Shown here: piece after piece, positions 2,853 to 29,909 of the stretch
How positions within the stretch are numbered: position 1 is the stretch's first letter
Layout of the letters: each line of letters opens with the position of its first letter
Source of the DNA: Escherichia phage vB_EcoS_UALMA_PCEc3
Length of the DNA: 44,679 nucleotides
Sequence record: PQ314493
Strand: one strand, 5' to 3'
Program-made: the position numbers and the translations under genes
The notes under the pieces: model-generated
Databases searched by the model: none
What the model was told of the DNA's origin: nothing
The model's input: the letters and a program-made list of their open reading frames with translations, nothing else

Positions 2853-2929
2853 GCTCTGCTAGCTCAACAGGACAGCAGCAACGACCTTCTAAGTCGTAGG
2901 TTACTGGTTCGAATCCAGTGCGGAGCGCC
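2853..2929 (+). tRNA. tRNA-Arg (anticodon TCT)
   Basis: 7-bp acceptor stem GCTCTGC/GCGGAGC, U8, D-loop with GG, anticodon stem acgac/gtcgt with loop cTTCTaa, T-arm actgg-TTCGAAT-ccagt, discriminator G and encoded CCA. Confidence 0.8.
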
Positions 2930-2936
2930 AAATTAA

Positions 2937-3038
2937 CGTCGCGTTGCTAATGTTGGCCAAAGGGTGGAGCTTATACCTCCATAAAGCAATCTCCAGATAA
3001 GAGATGTAACGCAGGTTCGATTCCTGCCGCGACGACCA
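2937..3038 (+). tRNA. atypical tRNA-like RNA (~99 nt + CCA; anticodon unresolved, candidates GAT or TAT)
   Basis: perfect 7-bp acceptor pairing cgtcgcg/cgcgacg, canonical T-arm gcagg-TTCGATT-cctgc, encoded CCA; ~25 extra nt relative to a standard tRNA. Confidence 0.35.
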
Positions 3039-3963: not shown

Positions 3964-5529
3964 ATGTCTTTAGTATGGGAAGAAATGACCATTCAGGAAA
4001 AGATGGCTGTCAAGGCGATATCAGAACACAGCTTCGAGGGTTTCCTTCGCTGCTGGTTCCAGATCACGCAAGGCGAGCGATACATCCCCAACTGGCATCA
4101 CAAGTACTTGTGCAGAATTATCGACGAGATTATCGCAGGGGAGCGCAAAGACACCATCATTAACATAGCGCCAGGTAGCGGGAAGACGGAAATCACATCA
4201 ATCCACTTCCCCGTCTACTCGATGCTAAAGCTAAAGAAGGTTCGCAACCTTAATATCTCGTTTTCCGACTCAAACGTGAAACGCAATTCAAAGCGAGTCC
4301 GGGACCTGATATCGTCAAAGGAGTTCCAGGAGCTATGGCCTTGCAAGTTCGGAACAAATAAGGATGACGAAATTCAGATCGTCGACGACGGCGGAAAGGT
4401 TAGATTCGAGTCCATATCAGCATCAAAAGGAGGTAGAATTACCGGTACGCGTGGTGGATACATCACCGACACATACAGTGGGGCGGTAATGCTGGATGAC
4501 TTCGATAAGCCCGACGAGATGTTTTCATCTGTATACAGAGCTAAGAGTCACACGTTACTTGGGAACACAATTCGCTCACGTCGCGCAAGTTCGGTAAAAG
4601 GGAAGGCAACTCCAATTATCCAGATTCAACAGCGACTTCACGTCAATGACTCAACATGGTTCATGCTTAGCGGCGGTATGGGGATTGATTTTGATTTGGT
4701 GAAAATACCCGCACTGGTTACTGAGGATTACGTTGACACACTACCTGACTGGATTAAGCAGCAATTCATTGATGATGTGTTATCAAGCGAATACGTTGAG
4801 CGTGACGGAGTGAAGTATTACAGCTACTTTCCTGGGAAGGAGTCTGTACATGACTTAATCGCCATGTGGGATGCTGACCAATACACGTTCCTTAGTCAGT
4901 ACCAGCAGGAACCTGTAGCTCTGGGCGGTAATCTTATTAATGTGGATTGGTTCCAGCGCCTTAGTGATACATTTAGGCCCCCAGCTAAGTACGATTATAG
5001 ATTCATAACTTGCGATACTGCGATGACCACTAAAAGTTACAGCGACTTCTCAGTTCTGCAGCTATGGGGCTATAAGGATGCTAAGATTTACCTTATAGAC
5101 CAGCGCAGAGGTAAATGGGAGGCACCAGAGTTGGAAGCTGAACTACTGGACTTCGAGAGGAAATCAAGGGCAACCAGTCAGTCAGATGGCATCCTCCGTA
5201 AAATCATCATCGAGAAAAAGGCATCTGGTATCGGCCTAATTCAATCGGCAGGTAGAGTGATGCGAACACCGATAGAGCCATACGTTCCGGATAACGACAA
5301 GCTTACTCGCGTAATGAGCTCATTGCCTCAGATTAAGGCTGGCAATGTAGTTCTTCCAGAGTCATCGCCGTGGCTAAACGGATTGCTCACTGAGGTTGCG
5401 GCTTTTACGGCAGATGACTCGCATAAGCACGACGACCAAATTGACTGTCTAACAATGGCGGTAAACCTTGTACTTAACATCGCTGATGATCCTAAGGCGA
5501 GACTGATGCGCATAGCGGGAATGAAATAG
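3964..5529 (+). CDS. terminase large subunit
   Basis: 521 aa; P-loop-like NIAPGSGKTEIT near N-terminus; position before portal; TAG stop inside box copy 5. Confidence 0.8.
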   Translation: MSLVWEEMTIQEKMAVKAISEHSFEGFLRCWFQITQGERYIPNWHHKYLCRIIDEIIAGERKDTIINIAPGSGKTEITSIHFPVYSMLKLKKVRNLNISFSDSNVKRNSKRVRDLISSKEFQELWPCKFGTNKDDEIQIVDDGGKVRFESISASKGGRITGTRGGYITDTYSGAVMLDDFDKPDEMFSSVYRAKSHTLLGNTIRSRRASSVKGKATPIIQIQQRLHVNDSTWFMLSGGMGIDFDLVKIPALVTEDYVDTLPDWIKQQFIDDVLSSEYVERDGVKYYSYFPGKESVHDLIAMWDADQYTFLSQYQQEPVALGGNLINVDWFQRLSDTFRPPAKYDYRFITCDTAMTTKSYSDFSVLQLWGYKDAKIYLIDQRRGKWEAPELEAELLDFERKSRATSQSDGILRKIIIEKKASGIGLIQSAGRVMRTPIEPYVPDNDKLTRVMSSLPQIKAGNVVLPESSPWLNGLLTEVAAFTADDSHKHDDQIDCLTMAVNLVLNIADDPKARLMRIAGMK

Positions 5530-19145: not shown

Positions 19146-22100
19146 ATGGCACAAATGATCAAAACAAACATGGGGCTTTTTGATATGGCTGAAGAGATTA
19201 AGATTTATGGTGCTAAGGGTGGTAGCCAGAAGCAGCACCAACCAGTGGAACAAGAAGACAACCTGATTTCATTAAACAAGGTTAAGGTATTACTTGCTGT
19301 CGCTGACGGAGAGGTGGATTCAAACTTCTCAATGAAGGATTTATACCTTGCTGACGTTCCCGTGCAAAATCAGGATGGTAGCTACAACTATGAAGGTGTT
19401 CGCGCTGAGTTTCGAGCTGGTACTCAGTATCAGGACTATATCGCTGGCCTTGATGGTGCAAATTCAGAGATTCAGGCATCCAGAGAGATCACGAACGATA
19501 CCCCGTATATCATCGCGGTTAACAATACCCAGCTATCAGCAATTCGAGTTAAGCTATTTTGGCCTCGACTTGTTAAGCAAGAAAGCAACGGCGACCTGAA
19601 CGGAACAACCTGCGAGTATGCGATTGACCTTTCTGTTAATGGCGGTGCTTACCAGGAATACACTCGCGGAGTTGCTAACGGGAAGACAACCACAGGTTAC
19701 GACCGCAGCATTCGTGTAAACCTCCCTGCTGAATTTGATAGCGCATTGGTTCGCATCCGCAAGATTACACCCGATTCAACAATCAGTACGCTGGTAAATG
19801 GTATGCAGATTACAACCTATCAGGAAGTAATCGACGCCAAATTCCGCTACCCGCTTACAGCGCTTGTTTATGTTGAGTTCGGCTCCGACTTGTTCCCCAA
19901 CGGAATCCCAACAATCTCAATCAAGAAGCGATGGAAGTTAATTCAGGTCCCAACGAACTATGATCCTGAGACTAGAACCTACAGCGGCACGTGGAATGGC
20001 CTGTTCAAGATTGCATGGTCAAACAACCCGGCGTGGGTTCTCTATGACTTAGTGACAAACCGCCGATATGGTCTTGATCAGCGAGAGCTTGGTGTAGAGA
20101 TTGATAAATGGGGACTGTATGAAGCTGCGCAATTCTGCGACCAGATGGTGCCGGATGGTAAGGGTGGAATGGAACCTCGATATCTATGCGACATGGTTGT
20201 ACAGAACAAGGTTGAGGCCTACACACTAATTCGTGACATTTGCTCAATCTTTCGTGGACTGACTTTCTATGATGGAGAAAAGATTGGTATCGTGGTTGAT
20301 AAACCTCGCAATCCATCTTACATCTTCACTAATGATAACGTTGTAAACGGATTATTCAGCCGCACTTTTGCCAGCGATAAAAGCCTTTACACTACGGCAA
20401 ACGTTCAGTTTGATGATGTGGAGAACAACTATCAGCAGGATGTTGAGCCAGTATTTGAGCTCGAGGCTACTCGCCGATTTGGTTTTAACCCGGTCGACCT
20501 AACGGCAATTGGATGTACGCGAAGAAGTGAAGCAAACAGACGCGGAAGATGGCTACTGAAAACCAACCTGAGAAGCGAAACTATCAGCTTCACTACCGGG
20601 TTGGAAGGCATGATTCCGATGATTGGTGAGGTTATTGCGGTTAATGACGCTGCATGGTCGAGCAACTACCAGTTAAACCTTTCCGGTCGTATTGAATCAG
20701 TTCAGGGATTGCAGGTTTTCACCCCGTTCAAAGTTGACGCGGCACCGGGTGACAGAATTCTTCTGAACAAGCCTGACGGAAGCCCGGAAGCAAGAACTAT
20801 CGCCAGCGTTTCGGAAGATGGTAGAACTATCAACCTGAATACTGCTTTTAGTTTTGTAGCTCAGCCTGACACTGTATTCGCAATCGATAAGGATAATCTG
20901 GCGCTTCAGCAGTATGTTGTGACAGGGATTCAAAAAGCAGATTCTGATGGTTCGGATTCATTCCAGTATACGATTACCGCGGTGGAGTATGACCCGAACA
21001 AGTATGACGAGATTGACTACGGCGTTAACATTGTTGACCGTCCAACTTCAATTGTGGAACCTGACAGATTATCGCCACCAGAAAACCTGACCGTGTCAAG
21101 TTATAGTAAGGTTGTTCAGGGCTTGTCGGTTGAGACGATGGTTATCGGATGGGATAAGGCTCCATACGCTAAAACCTACAATGTTCAATGGAGGAAAGAA
21201 AATGGTAACTGGATTAACGTACCCAGAACAGCAAGTACAGAGGTTGATATCGAAGGTATTTACGCAGGAATCTATGACGTTAGGGTTCGCAGCGTATCAG
21301 ATACTGAAAACGTGTCTGCCTGGTCTGACATTGTAACTGTATCACTAACTGGCAAGATTGGTCGTCCCTCTGCACCTACGGTTATCACGGCATCAAATGA
21401 TGAAGTATTTGGTATCCGTGTTAAGTGGGGTTTCCCTTATGGCTCTGGCGATACTGCTTATACTGAACTTCAGCAGGTTCCTGATAATGGTGACGGTACT
21501 TACAATCCTGACAATGCAAGTTTGCTTACATTACTTCCGTATCCAGCTTATGAATACTGGCACACGCCAATTCAGCCAGGTAAGGTTATCTGGTATCGGG
21601 CGAGACTGATTGACAGAATCGGAAATACGTCTGATTGGTCTAATTTCTCAAGAGGCATGAGTACTGACGACGCCAACATTATCAATGATTACATCAAGGT
21701 TGATATTGAGGGTTCTGAAGGATTCAAATACCTCGAGCAGAATGCGATTCAAAAGAATCAGGACATTCAGAATCAGGCAGAGTCAATTCTTGAGAACGCA
21801 TTAGCTAATGATACTGATGTTCGCCGCATGACTAAGGAGAATGGCAAACGTAAGGCTGAATATGTTCAGGCGGTGAATCTCATAGCTGATGAAACTCAGG
21901 CGCGTGTAGAAGCTCTAACGCAGCTTAAGGCGCAAATTGATGATGAGGTCGTTGCATCAATTACTGAAGTTCAGACAGCGTTAGCAACCGAGACGGAGGC
22001 AAGAACTACCTCCGACACTCAGCTATCAGCAAGAATTGGTGATAACGAGGCAGCGTTAAACCAGAAGCTGGACGCTTTTGCTAACGCCACATCGACTGGC

Positions 22101-22571
22101 GTACAGTACGGGATTAGCCTTGGCCTGAAATACAATGGGCAGACTTATTCATCCGGGATGAGCATGGAGCTTGTTGGCACCGGTGGGAATGTTCGCAGCC
22201 AGTTCATTTTTGACGCAAACAGATTCGCGATCAGTAACGGCATTGGCTCTGGTTCCGGTCAGTGGCAGCTCCCCTTCGTTGTCGAGAACGGAAACGTAAT
22301 CATCCAGAGCGCAGTTATCGGTGATGGTTCAATCAGCAACGCGAAGATTGGTAACTTTATTCAGTCGAATAACTATGTGGCAGGAACTACGGGTTGGAGG
22401 ATTGATAAATCAGGAAGTGCAGAGTTAAGCAACGCCACTGTAAGAGGTAATCTTTACGCTAACAATGGCAACTTCGCATTTAACGGAACCAATAACACGG
22501 TTCAGATTAACAATAACGGAATCACTGTAAACTTACCGAACGGAGGAAGAGTGGTAGTTGGAGTGTGGTAA
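19146..22571 (+). CDS. central tail fiber / host specificity protein (lambda gpJ-like)
   Basis: 1141 aa, position after K/I-like genes. Confidence 0.75.
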   Translation: MAQMIKTNMGLFDMAEEIKIYGAKGGSQKQHQPVEQEDNLISLNKVKVLLAVADGEVDSNFSMKDLYLADVPVQNQDGSYNYEGVRAEFRAGTQYQDYIAGLDGANSEIQASREITNDTPYIIAVNNTQLSAIRVKLFWPRLVKQESNGDLNGTTCEYAIDLSVNGGAYQEYTRGVANGKTTTGYDRSIRVNLPAEFDSALVRIRKITPDSTISTLVNGMQITTYQEVIDAKFRYPLTALVYVEFGSDLFPNGIPTISIKKRWKLIQVPTNYDPETRTYSGTWNGLFKIAWSNNPAWVLYDLVTNRRYGLDQRELGVEIDKWGLYEAAQFCDQMVPDGKGGMEPRYLCDMVVQNKVEAYTLIRDICSIFRGLTFYDGEKIGIVVDKPRNPSYIFTNDNVVNGLFSRTFASDKSLYTTANVQFDDVENNYQQDVEPVFELEATRRFGFNPVDLTAIGCTRRSEANRRGRWLLKTNLRSETISFTTGLEGMIPMIGEVIAVNDAAWSSNYQLNLSGRIESVQGLQVFTPFKVDAAPGDRILLNKPDGSPEARTIASVSEDGRTINLNTAFSFVAQPDTVFAIDKDNLALQQYVVTGIQKADSDGSDSFQYTITAVEYDPNKYDEIDYGVNIVDRPTSIVEPDRLSPPENLTVSSYSKVVQGLSVETMVIGWDKAPYAKTYNVQWRKENGNWINVPRTASTEVDIEGIYAGIYDVRVRSVSDTENVSAWSDIVTVSLTGKIGRPSAPTVITASNDEVFGIRVKWGFPYGSGDTAYTELQQVPDNGDGTYNPDNASLLTLLPYPAYEYWHTPIQPGKVIWYRARLIDRIGNTSDWSNFSRGMSTDDANIINDYIKVDIEGSEGFKYLEQNAIQKNQDIQNQAESILENALANDTDVRRMTKENGKRKAEYVQAVNLIADETQARVEALTQLKAQIDDEVVASITEVQTALATETEARTTSDTQLSARIGDNEAALNQKLDAFANATSTGVQYGISLGLKYNGQTYSSGMSMELVGTGGNVRSQFIFDANRFAISNGIGSGSGQWQLPFVVENGNVIIQSAVIGDGSISNAKIGNFIQSNNYVAGTTGWRIDKSGSAELSNATVRGNLYANNGNFAFNGTNNTVQINNNGITVNLPNGGRVVVGVW

Positions 22572-22577
22572 TAAATA

Positions 22578-22605
22578 AAGCCCCTTAATTGGGGCTTTTC
22601 TTTTA
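22578..22605. terminator. bidirectional terminator between gpJ-like (+) and minus-strand operon
   Basis: hairpin agccccttaattggggct flanked by A-run and T-run. Confidence 0.55.
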
Positions 22606-23565
22606 GTAGAAGTTTGGGATAAATGGAAGTGCCATTGATATGTTCGTGTCGAAAGGAAACTGAGCGCCAGTCTGAGTTGAGTAGTTACCTATTACAGAAC
22701 CAGGAACAGCCCTAACAGAGCCTCCAGACATGCAAACCCCCTTGTACCTTAAGTTGTTATAACCTCCAGTAACTCTAGTAGTGGCGCCGCATCTAAGAAG
22801 CGGGAAGAATCCACCATTTATTGACTGGTATCCATTATTGATCTGAATGAATCCACCAAGAACAAATGGGCGGCGAACACTTGAAAAAACAATCTGACCA
22901 GAGCTATTTGACATTGTGAGTCCAGGCCCGGCCGGTGGGGGTTCATTCCTGAATATCACCAGCTGAACATAAGTGCTTGCCGCAACATCATCTGTACCTC
23001 CGTAGGTTATATCCCTACACCATATTGTTGATCCATCTGATTCAAGTGATACGTTTGGATTATCCCACTTGCCGAATGGTATGCCGCTAACTGGTAGTGA
23101 TGCTGATCCGTTAACCTGAATACCACCAACCCATGCCGCAGACATTAGTCTTGAGTTGCTTGATATTGCCAGAAAGTCAGTTGAATTCTCAACAAGTATT
23201 CCAGGACTTGATGAAGATGAAGCTGGTAGTATCTCAAAGCAGTTCCCAGTAAAGTCAATTATTCGACCCTTGGCTCCGTTGAAGTTACTAAGTGTTATCC
23301 TGCCAGTTCCGTCATTAACCTTTTGGAATCCGTTCATATAATAAACTTCAGGTACAACATCGTAAGCATCAACGTGGACTGCCTTCGTTGGTAGGCAGAA
23401 AGCCGTAGAGCCAGGTGACATTATCAATCCAAAATCCCACGAACTTGCCGGAGTTGAAAGCCCATTGGTGTTTATTGAACCGGTCACTGCTGGTGCCCTT
23501 AATCCCGCAGTAATCTCCATTGCCGGCCTTCCATCATTCAAGTCTATCAGAATACCCTGAGGCAT
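22603..23565 (-). CDS. Gly/Ser/Thr-rich protein, possible receptor-binding/tail-associated protein
   Basis: ATG at 23565 after RBS aaggag, TAATG overlap with upstream lipoprotein gene; function is inference from context. Confidence 0.35.
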   Translation of the reverse strand: MPQGILIDLNDGRPAMEITAGLRAPAVTGSINTNGLSTPASSWDFGLIMSPGSTAFCLPTKAVHVDAYDVVPEVYYMNGFQKVNDGTGRITLSNFNGAKGRIIDFTGNCFEILPASSSSSPGILVENSTDFLAISSNSRLMSAAWVGGIQVNGSASLPVSGIPFGKWDNPNVSLESDGSTIWCRDITYGGTDDVAASTYVQLVIFRNEPPPAGPGLTMSNSSGQIVFSSVRRPFVLGGFIQINNGYQSINGGFFPLLRCGATTRVTGGYNNLRYKGVCMSGGSVRAVPGSVIGNYSTQTGAQFPFDTNISMALPFIPNFY

Positions 23566-23810
23566 TATTTCCACTCCTTACTTCCGTGATCTGCAACTGA
23601 GCCACCGTAACCTCCTCCAGCCTTGCTTTCAATTCCGGCGTAACGAATATCTACATCACCAGCAGGAACTACTGCGCCACCCTTCCATTTAGCAACGCAC
23701 ACGCCGTTTGCTTGCGTTGCGCACCAACCATCAGGGCGAGGACCAGAGGAACAACCTACCATCATGATTGCTGTCGCCGCGATGATTGAAAGTTTGATTA
23801 AGTTAGTCAT
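23565..23810 (-). CDS. Cor/Llp-like lipoprotein (putative superinfection exclusion)
   Basis: signal peptide with lipobox-like MVGC followed by SS; 81 aa; location next to tail fiber genes as for cor/llp. Confidence 0.5.
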
Positions 23811-23874
23811 TTTGAATTCCTCATTAAGTTGTTTCGTTTCGATGGAGTAATAGTACCGTATCCTTGCGATCAGT

Positions 23875-23895
23875 GTTTAGCAATTAGTGCTATTC
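23875..23895 (-). promoter_or_regulatory. palindromic box copy (minus orientation) upstream of Cor-like gene
   Basis: minus-sense gaatagcactaattgctaaac; -10-like TACTAT and leader ccatcgaaacgaaac follow. Confidence 0.55.
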
Positions 23896-24137
23896 AACCA
23901 TCTGTTATATTTATCCCTCTCATTGATTGCCTTTTCAAGTGACTTGAATCTTAAAAGTAGATGCATGCAGTCAACACCCATAGTTAAGGATTCGTCACAG
24001 CTACTAGCACCTGTCAGCCAAAGTGAGAAGTATTGTTGATCAAGGCCGTAGTTCCTGTCTTTATTAACTCTAACGCTAACAACTTTAAATTCTAAACCAG
24101 CCAGCTTAACCTTATCTATAAATTCTGACTTATTCAT
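23877..24137 (-). CDS. hypothetical protein (C-terminus NSTNC encoded by box)
   Basis: track ORF 23877..24182; likely start at ATG 24137 after RBS aaaagggga; TAA stop inside box copy. Confidence 0.4.
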   Translation of the reverse strand: MNKSEFIDKVKLAGLEFKVVSVRVNKDRNYGLDQQYFSLWLTGASSCDESLTMGVDCMHLLLRFKSLEKAINERDKYNRWLNSTNC

Positions 24138-24190
24138 CTTGTTTCCCCTTTTGAGTTTACCTGGAAATAGTACATCACCCATGAGCTTTT

Positions 24191-24213
24191 TCTTTAGCTA
24201 TTTGTGCTATTGC
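24191..24213 (-). promoter_or_regulatory. box variant (minus orientation)
   Basis: minus-sense aatagcacaaatagctaaag. Confidence 0.45.
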
Positions 24214-24299
24214 ATACACGTAACCGATGTAACTCTATGTATACAATCTCATCCGCGGAAAATGATATACGCGCTGTTACGCCAATTTACGCATTGGTT

Positions 24300-24530
24300 A
24301 CATTAAAATATCTATATATATCAACCTTTTACTCTTATTATTATTATTATATATATTATTATGTATATCGTGTAACTACTTCTATAGAGTGTTCCGGTTA
24401 TAATTTTAATATCATGTGGATTTATACAGTATATAGCAACCAACATAGCAACGCACCATCCGCAATAAATGATATACACGATATACACGATGGTTACATT
24501 GAGCTATAGCTGGGCTTGGATGCCAAGAAG
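24300..24530. repeat. AT-rich intergenic repeat region A (TTA-repeat tract, GTTACGC-type iterons, AGCTATAGCT palindrome)
   Basis: shares ~40-nt and ~30-nt blocks with region 42660-42885. Confidence 0.5.
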
Positions 24531-24671
24531 CGTAACAGGTGCTAATGTCCACACGTAATTACAATGATTCACGCGTAAGTTGAATCAACGATTGGTAAAA
24601 CCAATTGGACTTGTTACGGTGTCGAATATATAGTTAACCCATAGAAAGCAAGCAACCAGAGAGATATAGAA

Positions 24672-27030: not shown

Positions 27031-27060
27031 AGAAAAGGCCCCTTTCGGGGCCTTTTTTAT
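27031..27060. terminator. bidirectional rho-independent terminator
   Basis: hairpin aggcccctttcggggcct flanked by A-run and T-run; convergent genes on both sides. Confidence 0.7.
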
Positions 27061-29867
27061 GAAGCTGTATTTACCTGAAGATATGCACCATTAGTTGCAC
27101 CAAACCATGCGTAAGCAGATCCGTAAGTTGTTGGGTTATCATTTAAGATGAAGTCACCCGCTCTAATTACGCACTTTTCTCCATATTTATCAGTTGGCCT
27201 TGCACTAAAACCATAATCAACATATCTAAAACCAACCTTCGTTACGTTATCGTTAAGAGGAAAAATATCCGAGAAGCTAGAAGCCCTAAAGTCATTGTTC
27301 CTGAAAATTCCTCCTGTAAAGTTATCCATATCAAACATTGTGGTTAAACTTGAAGCAACAGTATTCATGAACTTGTTGCCTTCATATGTCGGAGCTACTA
27401 CTTCATAGCCAACTCTTAGCTGAACAAATCCCCCATCAATAATATTGTCCTTGACTATTGGATATTGCCCGCCGATTGCTAAGCCACCAAACCCAGGTGT
27501 AAATTTGCAACTATTATTACTAAATATAGTGCCAACCCACGCCTGATTTGTAAGGTATGGTGCCTTAGTATCTGTCATGGTGTTCCCGGTGATAATCAAT
27601 CCATTCTTGGCCTGAATTCCCTCCTGGTAGCCCTGAATCGCTACGCCGCCACCAATCATAATGTTGCTGGATATAATAATGTTGCTCAACCCCTCATTAA
27701 CACCCCAATCACTTTCTGCATCATTTGTTATCAGTAAGTAGTGAGAAGAAGCCCTGCCAGTAGCGTCTGTAGTTATGATGCTTGTATTCCCTTTGCATAT
27801 AACATTGTTTGCCGCAAAAACCTCAACAAATATACCAGAGCCTTCGTAGTAGTTATCAGTAACCGTTACGTTATTGCCAGCCGGGGTTATCCTTGACTGG
27901 ATAGATATTGGATAATAGAACTTGTTGGCGTGAGCGTAAGACCTTCGGCTTCTCTCGGATATTGCATAATCCTCCGCGAAAGTATGCCATGCCCTTCCTG
28001 ACTGTTTTGTTGTGTTTCCTATAAACTCTGAGTAGTCACAGTTTCTTGTGATTAAGCAGTAGTTAGCGTTGTATCTGAAGCTTGAATTTCTAAGAGATAC
28101 GAATGCATTAGGTAAGCCATTAAGAGCATCGGCATTAACAAAGGCCCTCGAGGCATTAACCTCCATACCCTCGATCACAACTGATGCGCATCCTTCAACC
28201 ATAAAACCAAACCAGTCTTCTCTTGGTTTATGCTCTGTATCCGTTGGTTGGATTGAGTAATCTGAAAAGTCAGTATTCCAGTTGAGTCCGCTAGCTTTAA
28301 ATGTGCAACCTTTAAGCCCGAAAACAACCCTCTCTGGTGATGTGCTTCCAGAGATATCAATATCAACATCATTATTGGCAAAAATGTCAACAGTAAGTCC
28401 ATTGAGGAAGAATGCCGTTTGCCTTAACACTCTGTACTTATCATTGTACTGAACACCATCGGAGAATGAGACTTTCAGTCTTCCAGCGCTAATTCTTACC
28501 TTCCTGTTTGTATTGTGACCAAGGTTTATACATGCCATAACCGAGGCGTTTGATTCATTAACTCCAGACACATCATGACCAGCCCATTCGGTATGGATAT
28601 CATCAACACCTCCCGTAAACCTAACCCAGCAACCATTTTCACCTGGTGATGTCTCACCCGCTCCGCTAAGGAAGTCTGAAAGAGTGGAATATGTACCATC
28701 AAATGGAACCGTTGGGCTAAAAACAGTAATCCCGTTATGTTCGCTCTTACTTACTAATGGACTCCAGTAGAACAGACCGCCACCAGAGTTTGATCCAGAA
28801 ATGTAAGACCTTACATTTGCTAAATTTTTATTCTCATTTGTTTGTTTGATTAGTTCGTAAATTGAATCAACTGAAGATAGTCCTAAATTACTCCTGGCAA
28901 GGCTTTTATCCGCAACATCAGAGAAATTCAATGATTTTTGAAAAGTCTCATTTTTTGAGTAAACATCAAGTAAACCTCTTACTCGCTGGGCGTTAGCGCC
29001 TCCAGCTTCATTTCCGCCAGGCAAGTAGATTGACTCTCTAACATAGTATTTCCTAACACCACCGGAAGTATTGTAACTGATGTGATAACGTCTAAAGCTG
29101 CCATCGATACCGGTGTAGGTTGACACTTGAATATTTCTTGATCCAGTCCCAGTTGCTCCGCCCTCTACAGATATAACAAGCGTAGCATTGCTTGGTACTT
29201 TTAATGCTTCTGGTGCATTTGTGCAAGCAGAGAAAGCAACCCTATAATGACCGCCAACAACAAAATTAAAAGTTTGGAAATCAAGTTCACTTAAAATATT
29301 GCTACCATTACCGATACCCCAACCAGAAAGTGTAACTAGTGTTCCAGCATCACCAGCACTATTAATTGCCTCAATAGTAGCATCTCTCGCTGATGTGGTT
29401 GTATCTCTTGCACTAACGGCAGTAGCTGCGCTCTCTGCGGCAGCAATCTGGCTAGCTAAAGCATCCGCTGCACCTTGCACTGACTGGCTTGCCAATTGCT
29501 CAAAGCGAGGCCAATCAAAAGAATCCTGACCAATGAAATCAATCAGGCTCTGAATGCTAGTTTCCCTACTCTGATAATAACGAAGTGTCTCCGCTACATT
29601 TTGAGCCAAACCCTGAACGCTAATCCCATCATGAGCAAGAATGGCATATCCAGTACCAGCAGGAACAGTTTCGCCATTTGGGTTATATACAGACAATGAA
29701 GTGTCGCTGGTGATTTCAGAGATAGTGTAAATCTGTACTGGCTCTGTTTTGAATACAATTGTAGCACCAACGCGAATAAGTGTTAGTGGCATGGTCCATT
29801 GAGTGCCAACTCCAGTAACCTGACCGTTCGCTGCTAAACTGGCAGTGCCAGTATCATAAATTGCCAT
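27057..29867 (-). CDS. tail fiber / tailspike-like protein with beta-helix-like repeats
   Basis: track ORF 27057..29897; probable ATG 29867 after RBS ggag; Asn/Gly-rich repeats suggest parallel beta-helix (inference). Confidence 0.6.
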   Translation of the reverse strand: MAIYDTGTASLAANGQVTGVGTQWTMPLTLIRVGATIVFKTEPVQIYTISEITSDTSLSVYNPNGETVPAGTGYAILAHDGISVQGLAQNVAETLRYYQSRETSIQSLIDFIGQDSFDWPRFEQLASQSVQGAADALASQIAAAESAATAVSARDTTTSARDATIEAINSAGDAGTLVTLSGWGIGNGSNILSELDFQTFNFVVGGHYRVAFSACTNAPEALKVPSNATLVISVEGGATGTGSRNIQVSTYTGIDGSFRRYHISYNTSGGVRKYYVRESIYLPGGNEAGGANAQRVRGLLDVYSKNETFQKSLNFSDVADKSLARSNLGLSSVDSIYELIKQTNENKNLANVRSYISGSNSGGGLFYWSPLVSKSEHNGITVFSPTVPFDGTYSTLSDFLSGAGETSPGENGCWVRFTGGVDDIHTEWAGHDVSGVNESNASVMACINLGHNTNRKVRISAGRLKVSFSDGVQYNDKYRVLRQTAFFLNGLTVDIFANNDVDIDISGSTSPERVVFGLKGCTFKASGLNWNTDFSDYSIQPTDTEHKPREDWFGFMVEGCASVVIEGMEVNASRAFVNADALNGLPNAFVSLRNSSFRYNANYCLITRNCDYSEFIGNTTKQSGRAWHTFAEDYAISERSRRSYAHANKFYYPISIQSRITPAGNNVTVTDNYYEGSGIFVEVFAANNVICKGNTSIITTDATGRASSHYLLITNDAESDWGVNEGLSNIIISSNIMIGGGVAIQGYQEGIQAKNGLIITGNTMTDTKAPYLTNQAWVGTIFSNNSCKFTPGFGGLAIGGQYPIVKDNIIDGGFVQLRVGYEVVAPTYEGNKFMNTVASSLTTMFDMDNFTGGIFRNNDFRASSFSDIFPLNDNVTKVGFRYVDYGFSARPTDKYGEKCVIRAGDFILNDNPTTYGSAYAWFGATNGAYLQVNTAS

Positions 29868-29888: not shown

Positions 29889-29909
29889 AAGTAGCACTAA
29901 TTGCTAAAG
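29889..29909. promoter_or_regulatory. palindromic box copy between primase terminator and tail fiber start
   Basis: aagtagcactaattgctaaag; only ~25 nt from tail fiber ATG in minus sense. Confidence 0.45.

Follow-up and report, generated by a model that had tools for sequence, protein, structure and literature searches.

The closest described systems combine a receptor-binding protein (RBP) at the tail tip with a small lipoprotein, both directed at LptD, the outer-membrane lipopolysaccharide translocon. The lipoprotein of phage Rtp, Rtp45, has been solved by cryo-EM on the periplasmic face of LptDE, where it excludes phage by a steric mechanism; the structure contains a Cys30-Cys38 disulfide, and its strand 30-35 pairs with residues 318 to 323 of LptD (PMC12685063; PDB 9RPS). 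The depositors describe Rtp45 as a lipoprotein anchored by an N-terminal lipid, and its exclusion phenotype is reported in other papers. Phages JeanPiccard and Oekolampad are experimentally LptD dependent. A laboratory contaminant that also depends on LptD, Escherichia phage vB_ecoS_OzMSK (MSK), is blocked when an LptD loop is removed by engineering (delta-Y658-Y678; PMC13035648). In the model of Maffei et al. (2021), the RBP locus lies downstream of gpJ, and Black et al. mapped the conserved RBP residues to a base that contains the N terminus. The biology of such a module—an RBP that binds an open state of LptDE and a lipoprotein that acts by steric exclusion—has already been published. The gene pair described here, for a predicted LptD-binding tail-tip protein and a predicted LptD-blocking lipoprotein, is of this known kind.

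Organization of the locus

The window, meaning the whole 44,679-nt stretch of DNA that was analyzed, is the complete genome of an Rtp-like member of the Drexlerviridae, ~93% identical to Escherichia coli phage CEB_EC3a over 96% of its first 25 kb. The features of the locus, in window coordinates, are as follows.

19146..22571, plus strand: GpJ-like central tail fiber (tail tip protein), 1141 aa (PF24801, PF09327, PF13550, and phrog_31, "central tail fiber J")
22577..22598, both strands: predicted bidirectional intrinsic terminator hairpin, its 8-bp stem including 5 GC pairs (terminator scan)
22603..23565, minus strand: predicted LptD-type RBP (DUF6453), 320 aa (PF20051, 9rpt_C, and identities to homologues)
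23565..23810, minus strand: predicted Rtp45-type superinfection-exclusion lipoprotein, 81-aa precursor (PF24052, 9rps_D, and identity to Rtp45)
23574..23579, minus strand: Shine-Dalgarno sequence AAGGAG of the RBP gene, inside the 3' end of the lipoprotein gene and 8 nt before the ATG of TAATG (sequence reading)
23822-23819, minus strand: Shine-Dalgarno sequence GAGG upstream of the lipoprotein gene (sequence reading)
23811..23849, minus strand: conserved leader (TACTCCATCGAAACGAAAC...) that includes the GAGG (sequence reading)
23850..23855, minus strand: -10-like hexamer TACTAT, whose distance from the upstream box is exactly 19 nt
23875..23895, minus strand: 21-nt box GAATAGCACTAATTGCTAAAC with the palindrome TAGCA-N5-TGCTA; the box forms the upstream part of a promoter-like cassette that recurs in the window

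The ORF list and direct reading of the sequence both placed the 81-aa ORF at 23565-23810 on the minus strand; the RBP ORF, on the same strand, runs from its ATG at 23565-23563 to 22603. The first-pass annotation had reported two minus-strand ORFs joined by a TAATG overlap downstream of a gpJ-like gene, and both ORFs and the overlap, in which the lipoprotein stop and the RBP ATG share 1 nt, lie where it had located them. It had given the large protein a length of 321 aa; the correct figure is 320 aa, from an ORF of 963 nt including the stop, the same length as the GenBank CDS. Since both ORFs had very strong family matches in profile searches, they are genes and not chance ORFs. The operon is convergent with the gpJ-like gene: the gpJ-like stop at 22571 is followed by the shared terminator and then by the RBP stop at 22603, and the annotation of CEB_EC3a has a terminator in the corresponding position. 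The position of the RBP gene fits the model of an RBP locus downstream of gpJ, and the GpJ-like protein is presumably the site to which the RBP attaches. An Rfam search of the whole window returned only two tRNAs at 2853-3035, with no match at the lipoprotein and RBP genes, and NCBIfam returned no matches for the lipoprotein, the RBP, or the GpJ-like protein.

A lipoprotein gene followed by an RBP gene beside a gpJ homologue is an arrangement common to Rtp, OzMSK, JeanPiccard, CEB_EC3a, and Oekolampad. The junction AAGGAGTGGAA(A/T)TAATG and its Shine-Dalgarno sequence were kept in OzMSK, Rtp, JeanPiccard, and CEB_EC3a (four of the four relatives compared). The closest allele was that of OzMSK (OzMSK_038 and OzMSK_039), with 97% identity in the RBP and 89% in the lipoprotein, and with the same box, leader, and junction. 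It differs in 10 of the 320 RBP residues and in what lies upstream of the box, a DNA methylase gene in OzMSK versus a 101-aa ORF here. In Rtp, rtp44 and rtp45 are likewise convergent with the gpJ homologue (rtp43), with the lipoprotein gene first and the same 1-nt TAATG overlap. Rtp45 is 83% identical to the lipoprotein here, matching it at 19 of 20 residues in the signal peptide and sharing the lipobox and Cys30 and Cys38, whereas identity between the RBP and Rtp44 reaches only 40%, the lipoprotein here carries a 5-residue insertion, and the box, intact here, is degenerate in Rtp. Oekolampad (bas18_0025 and bas18_0026; PDB 9RPT) belongs to a different genus, Dhillonvirus. Both protein families recur there, their genes ordered as here beside a J-like gene, but the RBP is 43% and the lipoprotein 40% identical, the genes are 2 nt apart instead of overlapping, and the upstream box is absent.

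The 81-aa putative lipoprotein

Lipoprotein residues 1 to 80 matched the full PF24052 profile (Phage_lipoprotein, positions 1 to 80 of 80) with 131.5 bits against a cutoff of 27 (E = 1.1e-38). Matches to phrog_4281 (E = 7.9e-36) and to PDB chain 9rps_D (E = 4e-37) were similarly strong. Residues 1 to 19 form the signal peptide, within a hydrophobic segment that spans residues 4 to 22, and Cys20 is the predicted lipidated residue, leaving a mature protein of 62 aa. The Ser at +2 suggests sorting to the outer membrane. The lipobox, MVGC, had been flagged as noncanonical for its Met at -3; that residue is indeed unusual, yet the motif is accepted by a regular expression modeled on the PROSITE PS51257 rule and is identical to the lipobox of Rtp45.

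Cys30 and Cys38, invariant in all five aligned homologues, are the predicted disulfide pair of the protein. The stretch that corresponds to the LptD-pairing strand of Rtp45, residues 30 to 35, reads CATQAN here versus CATQAS in Rtp45 (five of six residues kept). The insertion relative to Rtp45 consists of five residues (SKAGG) near the C terminus; this length variant is shared by OzMSK, with a comparable one in Oekolampad. The gene stands immediately upstream of an LptD-type RBP gene, in a locus beside a gpJ homologue. By homology, we would expect the protein to be lipidated and to confer an exclusion phenotype. The proposal in the first-pass annotation that this small lipoprotein blocks the phage receptor gains support from the PF24052 match and from the 83% identity to LptDE-bound Rtp45.

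The 320-aa putative receptor-binding protein

The large protein covered the whole PF20051 profile (DUF6453, positions 1 to 291 of 291) with 462.2 bits against a cutoff of 25 (E = 9e-139). It also matched PDB chain 9rpt_C, the Oekolampad RBP on LptDE, over its full length (E = 7.8e-66); the match spans residues 3 to 321 of the 321-residue translation that was submitted, equivalent to positions 2 to 320 of the 320-aa protein. A published rule assigns LptD-type RBPs by >30% identity and >99% coverage to RBPs of experimentally LptD-dependent phages (bioRxiv 10.64898/2026.04.02.716166). The RBP here aligned end to end and above that identity with its counterparts in OzMSK, Oekolampad, and JeanPiccard (41% for the last). 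An earlier suggestion that the larger protein is a receptor-binding partner is therefore borne out at the level of family, the candidate now being placed in an LptD-specific RBP family by its identity to the OzMSK protein and to the solved Oekolampad protein.

Conservation within the RBP is concentrated at the N terminus, where 14 of the first 25 alignment columns were invariant, compared to 6 of the next 85. We infer that the N-terminal ~24 residues, the most conserved part, form the base that docks to the tail tip, a pattern in agreement with the mapping by Black et al. No transmembrane segment was found in the RBP (highest Kyte-Doolittle 19-residue average, 1.0), and it is soluble as judged by hydropathy. 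Described in the first-pass annotation as Gly/Ser/Thr rich, it has 29.7% of these residues versus 20.7% over all long ORFs of the window. From its homologues, the protein is predicted to bind LptD and to dock to GpJ. Separately, Citrobacter phage HCF1 had an RBP match at the N terminus only, which turned out to be an uninformative remnant in an unverified assembly.

A repeated promoter-like cassette

Upstream of the lipoprotein gene, the box that the first-pass annotation had noted on the minus strand proved to be real. A motif search found 10 copies in the window at ≤3 mismatches, compared to none in 100 shuffles, and all 10 cassettes had a hexamer of the TATAGT, TATAAT, or TACTAT type at the same 19-nt distance from the box. 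The copy at this locus also encodes the last codons and stop (NSTNC*) of the upstream 101-aa ORF. The leader motif CATCGAAACGA recurred in five cassettes of the window and in relatives, including Rtp, and OzMSK, JeanPiccard, and CEB_EC3a have kept the box itself ahead of their homologous gene. We infer that the cassette of box and -10-like hexamer functions as a promoter. If TTGCTA is taken as the -35 element, the spacing to the -10 hexamer is 22 nt, and the cassette is therefore not a canonical sigma-70 promoter; a generic sigma-70 promoter scan called no promoter in front of the lipoprotein gene.

Proposed function

The locus very probably serves this Rtp-like siphophage (Drexlerviridae) as its module for host recognition and self-exclusion. 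Family membership of the two proteins is settled, because their sequence matches to the solved chains are full length. We propose that both genes would be transcribed together from the box and -10 cassette, with transcription ending at the terminator held in common with gpJ, and that AAGGAG-N8-ATG and the TAATG overlap would couple their translation. The RBP would be the terminal receptor-binding protein at the tip of the GpJ-like central fiber, probably held there by its conserved N-terminal base, and its distal loops would enter the extracellular mouth of LptD and so commit the particle to DNA injection. The 81-aa protein, for its part, would be exported, acquire its lipid at Cys20, and end up in the outer membrane's inner leaflet. 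In that position it may bind the periplasmic side of LptDE and push a hairpin up into the lumen of the LptD barrel, displacing extracellular loop 4, such that neither an arriving phage nor a newly released one could still bind through its RBP. The expected outcome would be superinfection exclusion, with progeny also kept from adsorbing to cell debris. The module as a whole predicts enterobacterial LptD as the terminal receptor. With these assignments, the large protein, now "membrane protein" in GenBank, should be relabeled as a putative LptD-type receptor-binding protein, and the small one, now "hypothetical protein," as a putative superinfection-exclusion lipoprotein.

Alternative receptors and functions

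The first-pass annotation had likened the locus to cor and llp, a comparison that holds as functional resemblance and fails as homology. T5 joins a monomeric tail-tip RBP for an outer-membrane protein, pb5 (oad), with a small periplasm-facing lipoprotein that disables the receptor, Llp, and the two genes are adjacent, as in the pair here. However, sequence similarity to the T5 proteins was not detectable by BLASTP (E = 0.11 for Llp against the lipoprotein and E = 0.61 for pb5 against the RBP), T5 uses FhuA as its receptor, and the effect of Llp is allosteric, in contrast to the steric loop displacement by the Rtp45-type lipoprotein (PMC12685063). The T5 genes are also divergent with separate promoters, whereas those here form one coupled operon. 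Cor of T1, phi80, and N15 is likewise a small minus-strand lipoprotein that acts in exclusion at the receptor level, again with FhuA as the associated receptor. The T1 gene is found in the syntenic position, between gpJ module and recE and likewise on the minus strand, but the RBP module of T1 (ST32 and ST31) lies on the plus strand after J, and these two FhuA-module proteins showed no similarity to the RBP here. A BLASTP alignment of the lipoprotein with T1 Cor had a weak pairwise score (E = 3e-4, 29% identity, 14% gaps), with most identities within the signal peptide and lipobox, and the PHROG Cor profile (phrog_1119) reached E = 0.026 over residues 6 to 34 only, in the signal peptide region. 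Set beside these scores, the identity to LptDE-bound Rtp45 makes it extremely unlikely that the 81-aa protein is an FhuA inactivator of the Cor/Llp family and the large protein an FhuA-directed adhesin. A Pfam scan of the lipoprotein found no Cor or Llp family and nothing else significant besides PF24052, and membership in both was rejected on the combined Pfam, PHROGs, and direct BLASTP results, the similarity being limited to the signal peptide. Homology points instead to LptD, not FhuA, as the probable receptor. Exceedingly small, too, is the chance that the locus is a nonstructural moron in which a membrane protein is joined by an unrelated lipoprotein, for example the outer-membrane component of a spanin. 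This idea draws on the GenBank name of the large protein and on phrog_1265, which bears the same "membrane protein" label and is filed under "moron, auxiliary metabolic gene and host takeover," but the large protein has no transmembrane segment, and the homologue with a solved structure is a soluble beta-sandwich protein that sits on LptD from the extracellular side. The lipoprotein, moreover, matches PF24052 and Rtp45 and not a spanin family, and the locus sits beside gpJ, in the slot described for RBPs and not in a lysis cassette.

The preferred reading, in which enterobacterial LptD is recognized and blocked, conflicts with the declared host. The host field of the matching GenBank record, PP134917.1 ("Pseudomonas phage PsgS01F"), names strain IBSBF-158 of Pseudomonas syringae pv. 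garcae, a host that differs from the one declared for OzMSK. Taken at face value, the record would have the same module act on a Pseudomonas receptor, either P. syringae LptD or another outer-membrane protein, with the lipoprotein blocking that receptor. LptD does serve as a receptor for at least one Pseudomonas phage, DEV, via an unrelated tail protein (PMC12892993). Even so, the host-recognition genes of the window are all coliphage-like, and the Pseudomonas label is the one oddity. The RBP is only 10 of 320 residues away from that of E. coli phage OzMSK/MSK, which did not lyse P. syringae when tested (PMC8421802), and the lateral tail fiber is 95% identical to its counterpart in CEB_EC3a, the E. 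coli phage to which the genome itself is 93% identical over most of its first 25 kb. Among the matches listed of 424 phage records with the RBP family, this phage alone had a Pseudomonas organism name, with one Pseudomonas entry in the DNA search, and the majority of those listed were phages of Enterobacteriaceae. The GC content of the window is 44.4%, compared to roughly 58 to 59% for P. syringae, and P. syringae LptD is very different from E. coli LptD. We therefore consider a Pseudomonas receptor for this module very unlikely. That the phage infects P. syringae pv. garcae with this module, its RBP and Rtp45-type lipoprotein recognizing and blocking the highly divergent pseudomonad LptD, is by our estimate very improbable as well; if true, it would mean that phages use an essential, conserved translocon as their receptor across bacterial orders. 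The depositing laboratory works on phage biocontrol of this coffee-plant pathogen, for which the phage would be useless if it is really a coliphage. Other phages for the same host from the same laboratory fall into genera typical of coliphages and carry no stronger description than "putative polyvalent."

Operon structure

The lipoprotein gene and the adjoining receptor-binding protein (RBP) gene are a further copy of a system already known in structure and mechanism. Their gene structure, coupling signals, and terminator were observed directly, as were the families of both products and their high sequence identity with proteins of solved LptDE complexes. The first-pass annotation had described a minus-strand lipoprotein gene coupled to a large gene beside the gpJ-like gene; the ORF list and the sequence confirm this arrangement, and the interpretation given to it is supported by sequence comparison. 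The 81-aa gene is present, and the TAATG overlap is borne out in the minus-strand sequence, where the RBP ATG and the lipoprotein TAA have one base in common. The second protein, reported earlier as 321 aa, is 320 aa long (963 nt with the stop).

Features of the operon and its surroundings
19146-22571, plus: gpJ-like gene, convergent with the lipoprotein/RBP operon
22577-22598, both strands: terminator hairpin with an 8-bp stem (terminator scan)
22603-23565, minus: RBP ORF, ATG at 23565-23563 (ORF list and minus-strand sequence)
23579-23574, minus: Shine-Dalgarno AAGGAG within the lipoprotein gene, 8 nt 5′ of the RBP ATG
23565-23810, minus: lipoprotein ORF, 81 aa (ORF list and minus-strand sequence)
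23822-23819, minus: Shine-Dalgarno GAGG, 5′ of the lipoprotein gene

The lipoprotein begins with 20 residues followed by SS. The position of AAGGAG within the first gene, just 5′ of the second ATG, gives a classic translational-coupling layout, and the AAGGAG...TAATG junction is kept in four Drexlerviridae examples (Rtp, OzMSK, JeanPiccard, and CEB_EC3a). Gene order and orientation are identical in the annotated regions of these four phages and Oekolampad. In the second protein, described as Gly/Ser/Thr rich, G+S+T is 29.7%, versus 20.7% across all long window ORFs.

Probable exclusion lipoprotein and LptD-type RBP

The lipoprotein matched Pfam PF24052 (Phage_lipoprotein) end to end (131.5 bits; cut-off, 27) and, in the Protein Data Bank, chain 9rps_D (“Phage lipoprotein”; E = 4e-37). 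The RBP matched DUF6453 (PF20051; 462 bits; cut-off, 25) and, over its full length, chain 9rpt_C (“Tail fiber protein”; E = 7.8e-66). The source of both is Dunbar et al. (2025, PNAS; PMC12685063), with 9RPT showing the Oekolampad RBP on LptDE. These matches argue for the earlier proposal of an exclusion lipoprotein with a receptor-binding partner.

In 9RPS, Rtp45, the superinfection-exclusion lipoprotein of phage Rtp, lies on the periplasmic side of LptDE between LptE and LptM, and its hairpin through the barrel lumen moves extracellular loop 4 as much as 20 Å, which makes RBP binding impossible (PMC12685063). Residues 30 and 38 of Rtp45 form a disulfide, and residues 30 to 35 pair with LptD residues 318 to 323 (PMC12685063). 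When aligned, the window lipoprotein shows 89% identity with OzMSK_039, 83% with Rtp45, 74% with its JeanPiccard counterpart, and 40% with that of Oekolampad, and Cys20, Cys30, and Cys38 are invariant in all five proteins. By homology, the 81-aa protein would be lipidated on Cys20, with Ser at +2 pointing to outer-membrane sorting, and would bind LptDE from the periplasm, excluding LptD-dependent phages.

Identity of the RBP with OzMSK_038 is 97%, with 10 residues substituted, and falls to 43% for the Oekolampad homologue, 41% for that of JeanPiccard, and 40% for Rtp44. An engineered LptD loop deletion blocks OzMSK (PMC13035648). Among BASEL small siphoviruses, LptD dependence was shown via spontaneous lptD mutants, the Oekolampad receptor was identified as LptD, an RBP locus was placed downstream of gpJ, and rtp44/rtp45 were named as the LptD allele (PMC8594841). 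A later, large screen lists Bas02 (JeanPiccard) among LptD-targeting phages and sets its LptD RBP family threshold at >30% identity and >99% coverage (bioRxiv 10.64898/2026.04.02.716166), which the window RBP passes. Invariant columns in the five-way RBP alignment made up 14 of 25 at the N-terminus versus 6 of the next 85, in agreement with the map of Black et al., in which the base containing the N-terminus holds the conserved residues and the predicted LptD-binding loops are variable (PMC13035648). The 320-aa protein is predicted from its homologues to sit on the GpJ tip, with LptD as binding partner. Its GenBank product name (CDS0059), “membrane protein,” is a label from phrog_1265 (PHROGs) and is misleading, since the RBP lacks transmembrane segments and is homologous to a soluble RBP of the tail tip.

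Compared with their Rtp counterparts, the lipoprotein shows much stronger conservation (83% identity) than the RBP (40%); a conserved periplasmic target versus a variable extracellular one would fit this gap. More remote relatives of the two proteins are encoded by Klebsiella phages of ~49- to 52-kb genome size (e.g., vB_KpnS_XF_ER21) and by ~76-kb phiEco32-like podophages, where the two genes stand ~10 to 45 kb apart, uncoupled; phage-database matches to both also include Escherichia phage StefiGeyer_Bas88. No terminal protein receptor for phiEco32-like podophages was found in the literature text searched.

Comparison with Cor and Llp

The likeness to Cor and Llp noted previously is sound as an analogy of position and function, since cor lies at the syntenic minus-strand position in T1 and llp adjoins the pb5 gene in T5, but sequence comparison does not support homology. 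The PHROG Cor profile aligned only with lipoprotein residues 6 to 34 (E = 0.026), and the 29% BLASTP identity to T1 Cor fell mostly within the signal peptide. BLASTP E values were 0.11 for the lipoprotein against T5 Llp and 0.61 for the RBP against pb5, and the T1 FhuA-module proteins (ST32 and ST31) are unrelated to the RBP. Mechanisms differ as well: the effect of Llp on FhuA is allosteric, that of Rtp45 in LptD a steric displacement (PMC12685063).

Genome relatives and host

The locus had a 100% megablast match to Pseudomonas phage PsgS01F (PP134917.1), whose host field reads Pseudomonas syringae pv. garcae. A module that genuinely uses pseudomonad LptD would account for this label, but several observations favour a coliphage. 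Other P. syringae pv. garcae phages from the same laboratory fall in the typical coliphage genera Tequatrovirus and Phapecoctavirus and were described as “putative polyvalent.” PP134917.1 is the sole Pseudomonas organism name among the listed matches to this locus, and the 424 phage records of the RBP family are mostly Enterobacteriaceae phages. The first 25 kb of the window is 93% identical over 96% to Escherichia phage vB_EcoS_CEB_EC3a (Drexlerviridae, Braunvirinae) and 86 to 90% identical to ACG-M12, SU57, OzMSK, and DTL; window GC is 44.4%. The lateral tail fibre (27057-29867) is 95% identical to that of CEB_EC3a, and RBP and lateral fibre share 95 to 97% identity with coliphage proteins. 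Judged by these comparisons, RBP, lateral fibre, and whole genome are coliphage-like. MSK, nearly identical to OzMSK according to Black et al. (PMC13035648), did not lyse P. syringae when tested (PMC8421802). The PP134917.1 phage is most likely a coliphage whose recorded host is doubtful or secondary. Polyvalence is the alternative to a doubtful label, and it is very improbable that the module truly uses the LptD of a pseudomonad.

Box cassette

The 21-nt box GAATAGCACTAATTGCTAAAC upstream of the lipoprotein gene had 10 window matches at ≤3 mismatches and none in 100 shuffles.

Box AAATAGCACnAATTGCTAAAC copies from the motif search of the window
256, 976, 1718, 5524, 29889, 34133, 37563, 43978: plus
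23875, 41533: minus

All 10 have a TATAGT, TATAAT, or TACTAT-type hexamer exactly 19 nt downstream. A leader, a Shine-Dalgarno, and an ATG follow in nine, five of whose leaders contain CATCGAAACGA; at 29889 a terminator-like hairpin takes their place. The cassette is kept 5′ of the homologous lipoprotein gene in OzMSK, JeanPiccard, and CEB_EC3a and is degenerate in Rtp. Copy number relative to shuffles, fixed spacing, the leaders and ATGs, and conservation in relatives establish a real, repeated, promoter-like element. It may drive the lipoprotein gene, as claimed earlier; its promoter activity is putative, and a generic sigma-70 scan called no promoter at the lipoprotein-gene copy. Reading TTGCTA of the box as a −35 would put 22 nt between it and the −10, an excessive distance, and the cassettes lack a normal −35. 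Class II activators bind around −42, near which the centre of the box palindrome TAGCA-N5-TGCTA would fall, and the palindrome may be such an activator-type site.

Unrelated upstream genes end inside the box with a common box-encoded C-terminus, NSTNC* (23877-23895; 4474-4494 in OzMSK locus L002), which suggests that the box is a border between modules at which cargo genes are swapped. The gene in this slot is a 101-aa ORF (phrog_4423; 23877-24182, minus) in the window, a DNA methylase in OzMSK, and a DNA-binding or anti-repressor-like gene in CEB_EC3a. Since the phrog_4423 profile covers only residues 16 to 100, the true start of the 101-aa ORF is probably Met16 (MNKSEF...). Beyond it, the divergent intergenic region at 24183-24671 (490 bp) is AT rich, contains (TTA)9, two copies of TATTATTATATA, and 2.3 copies of GATATACAC, and may be a regulatory region or replication origin; small GenBank CDSs there look spurious (e.g., product ...YYYYYIYYYV...). 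Elsewhere, two adjacent tRNA genes lie on the plus strand (2853-2927 and 2937-3035; Rfam); the related T1-like phages AHP24, AHS24, AHP42, and AKS96 have been described with one arginyl-tRNA.
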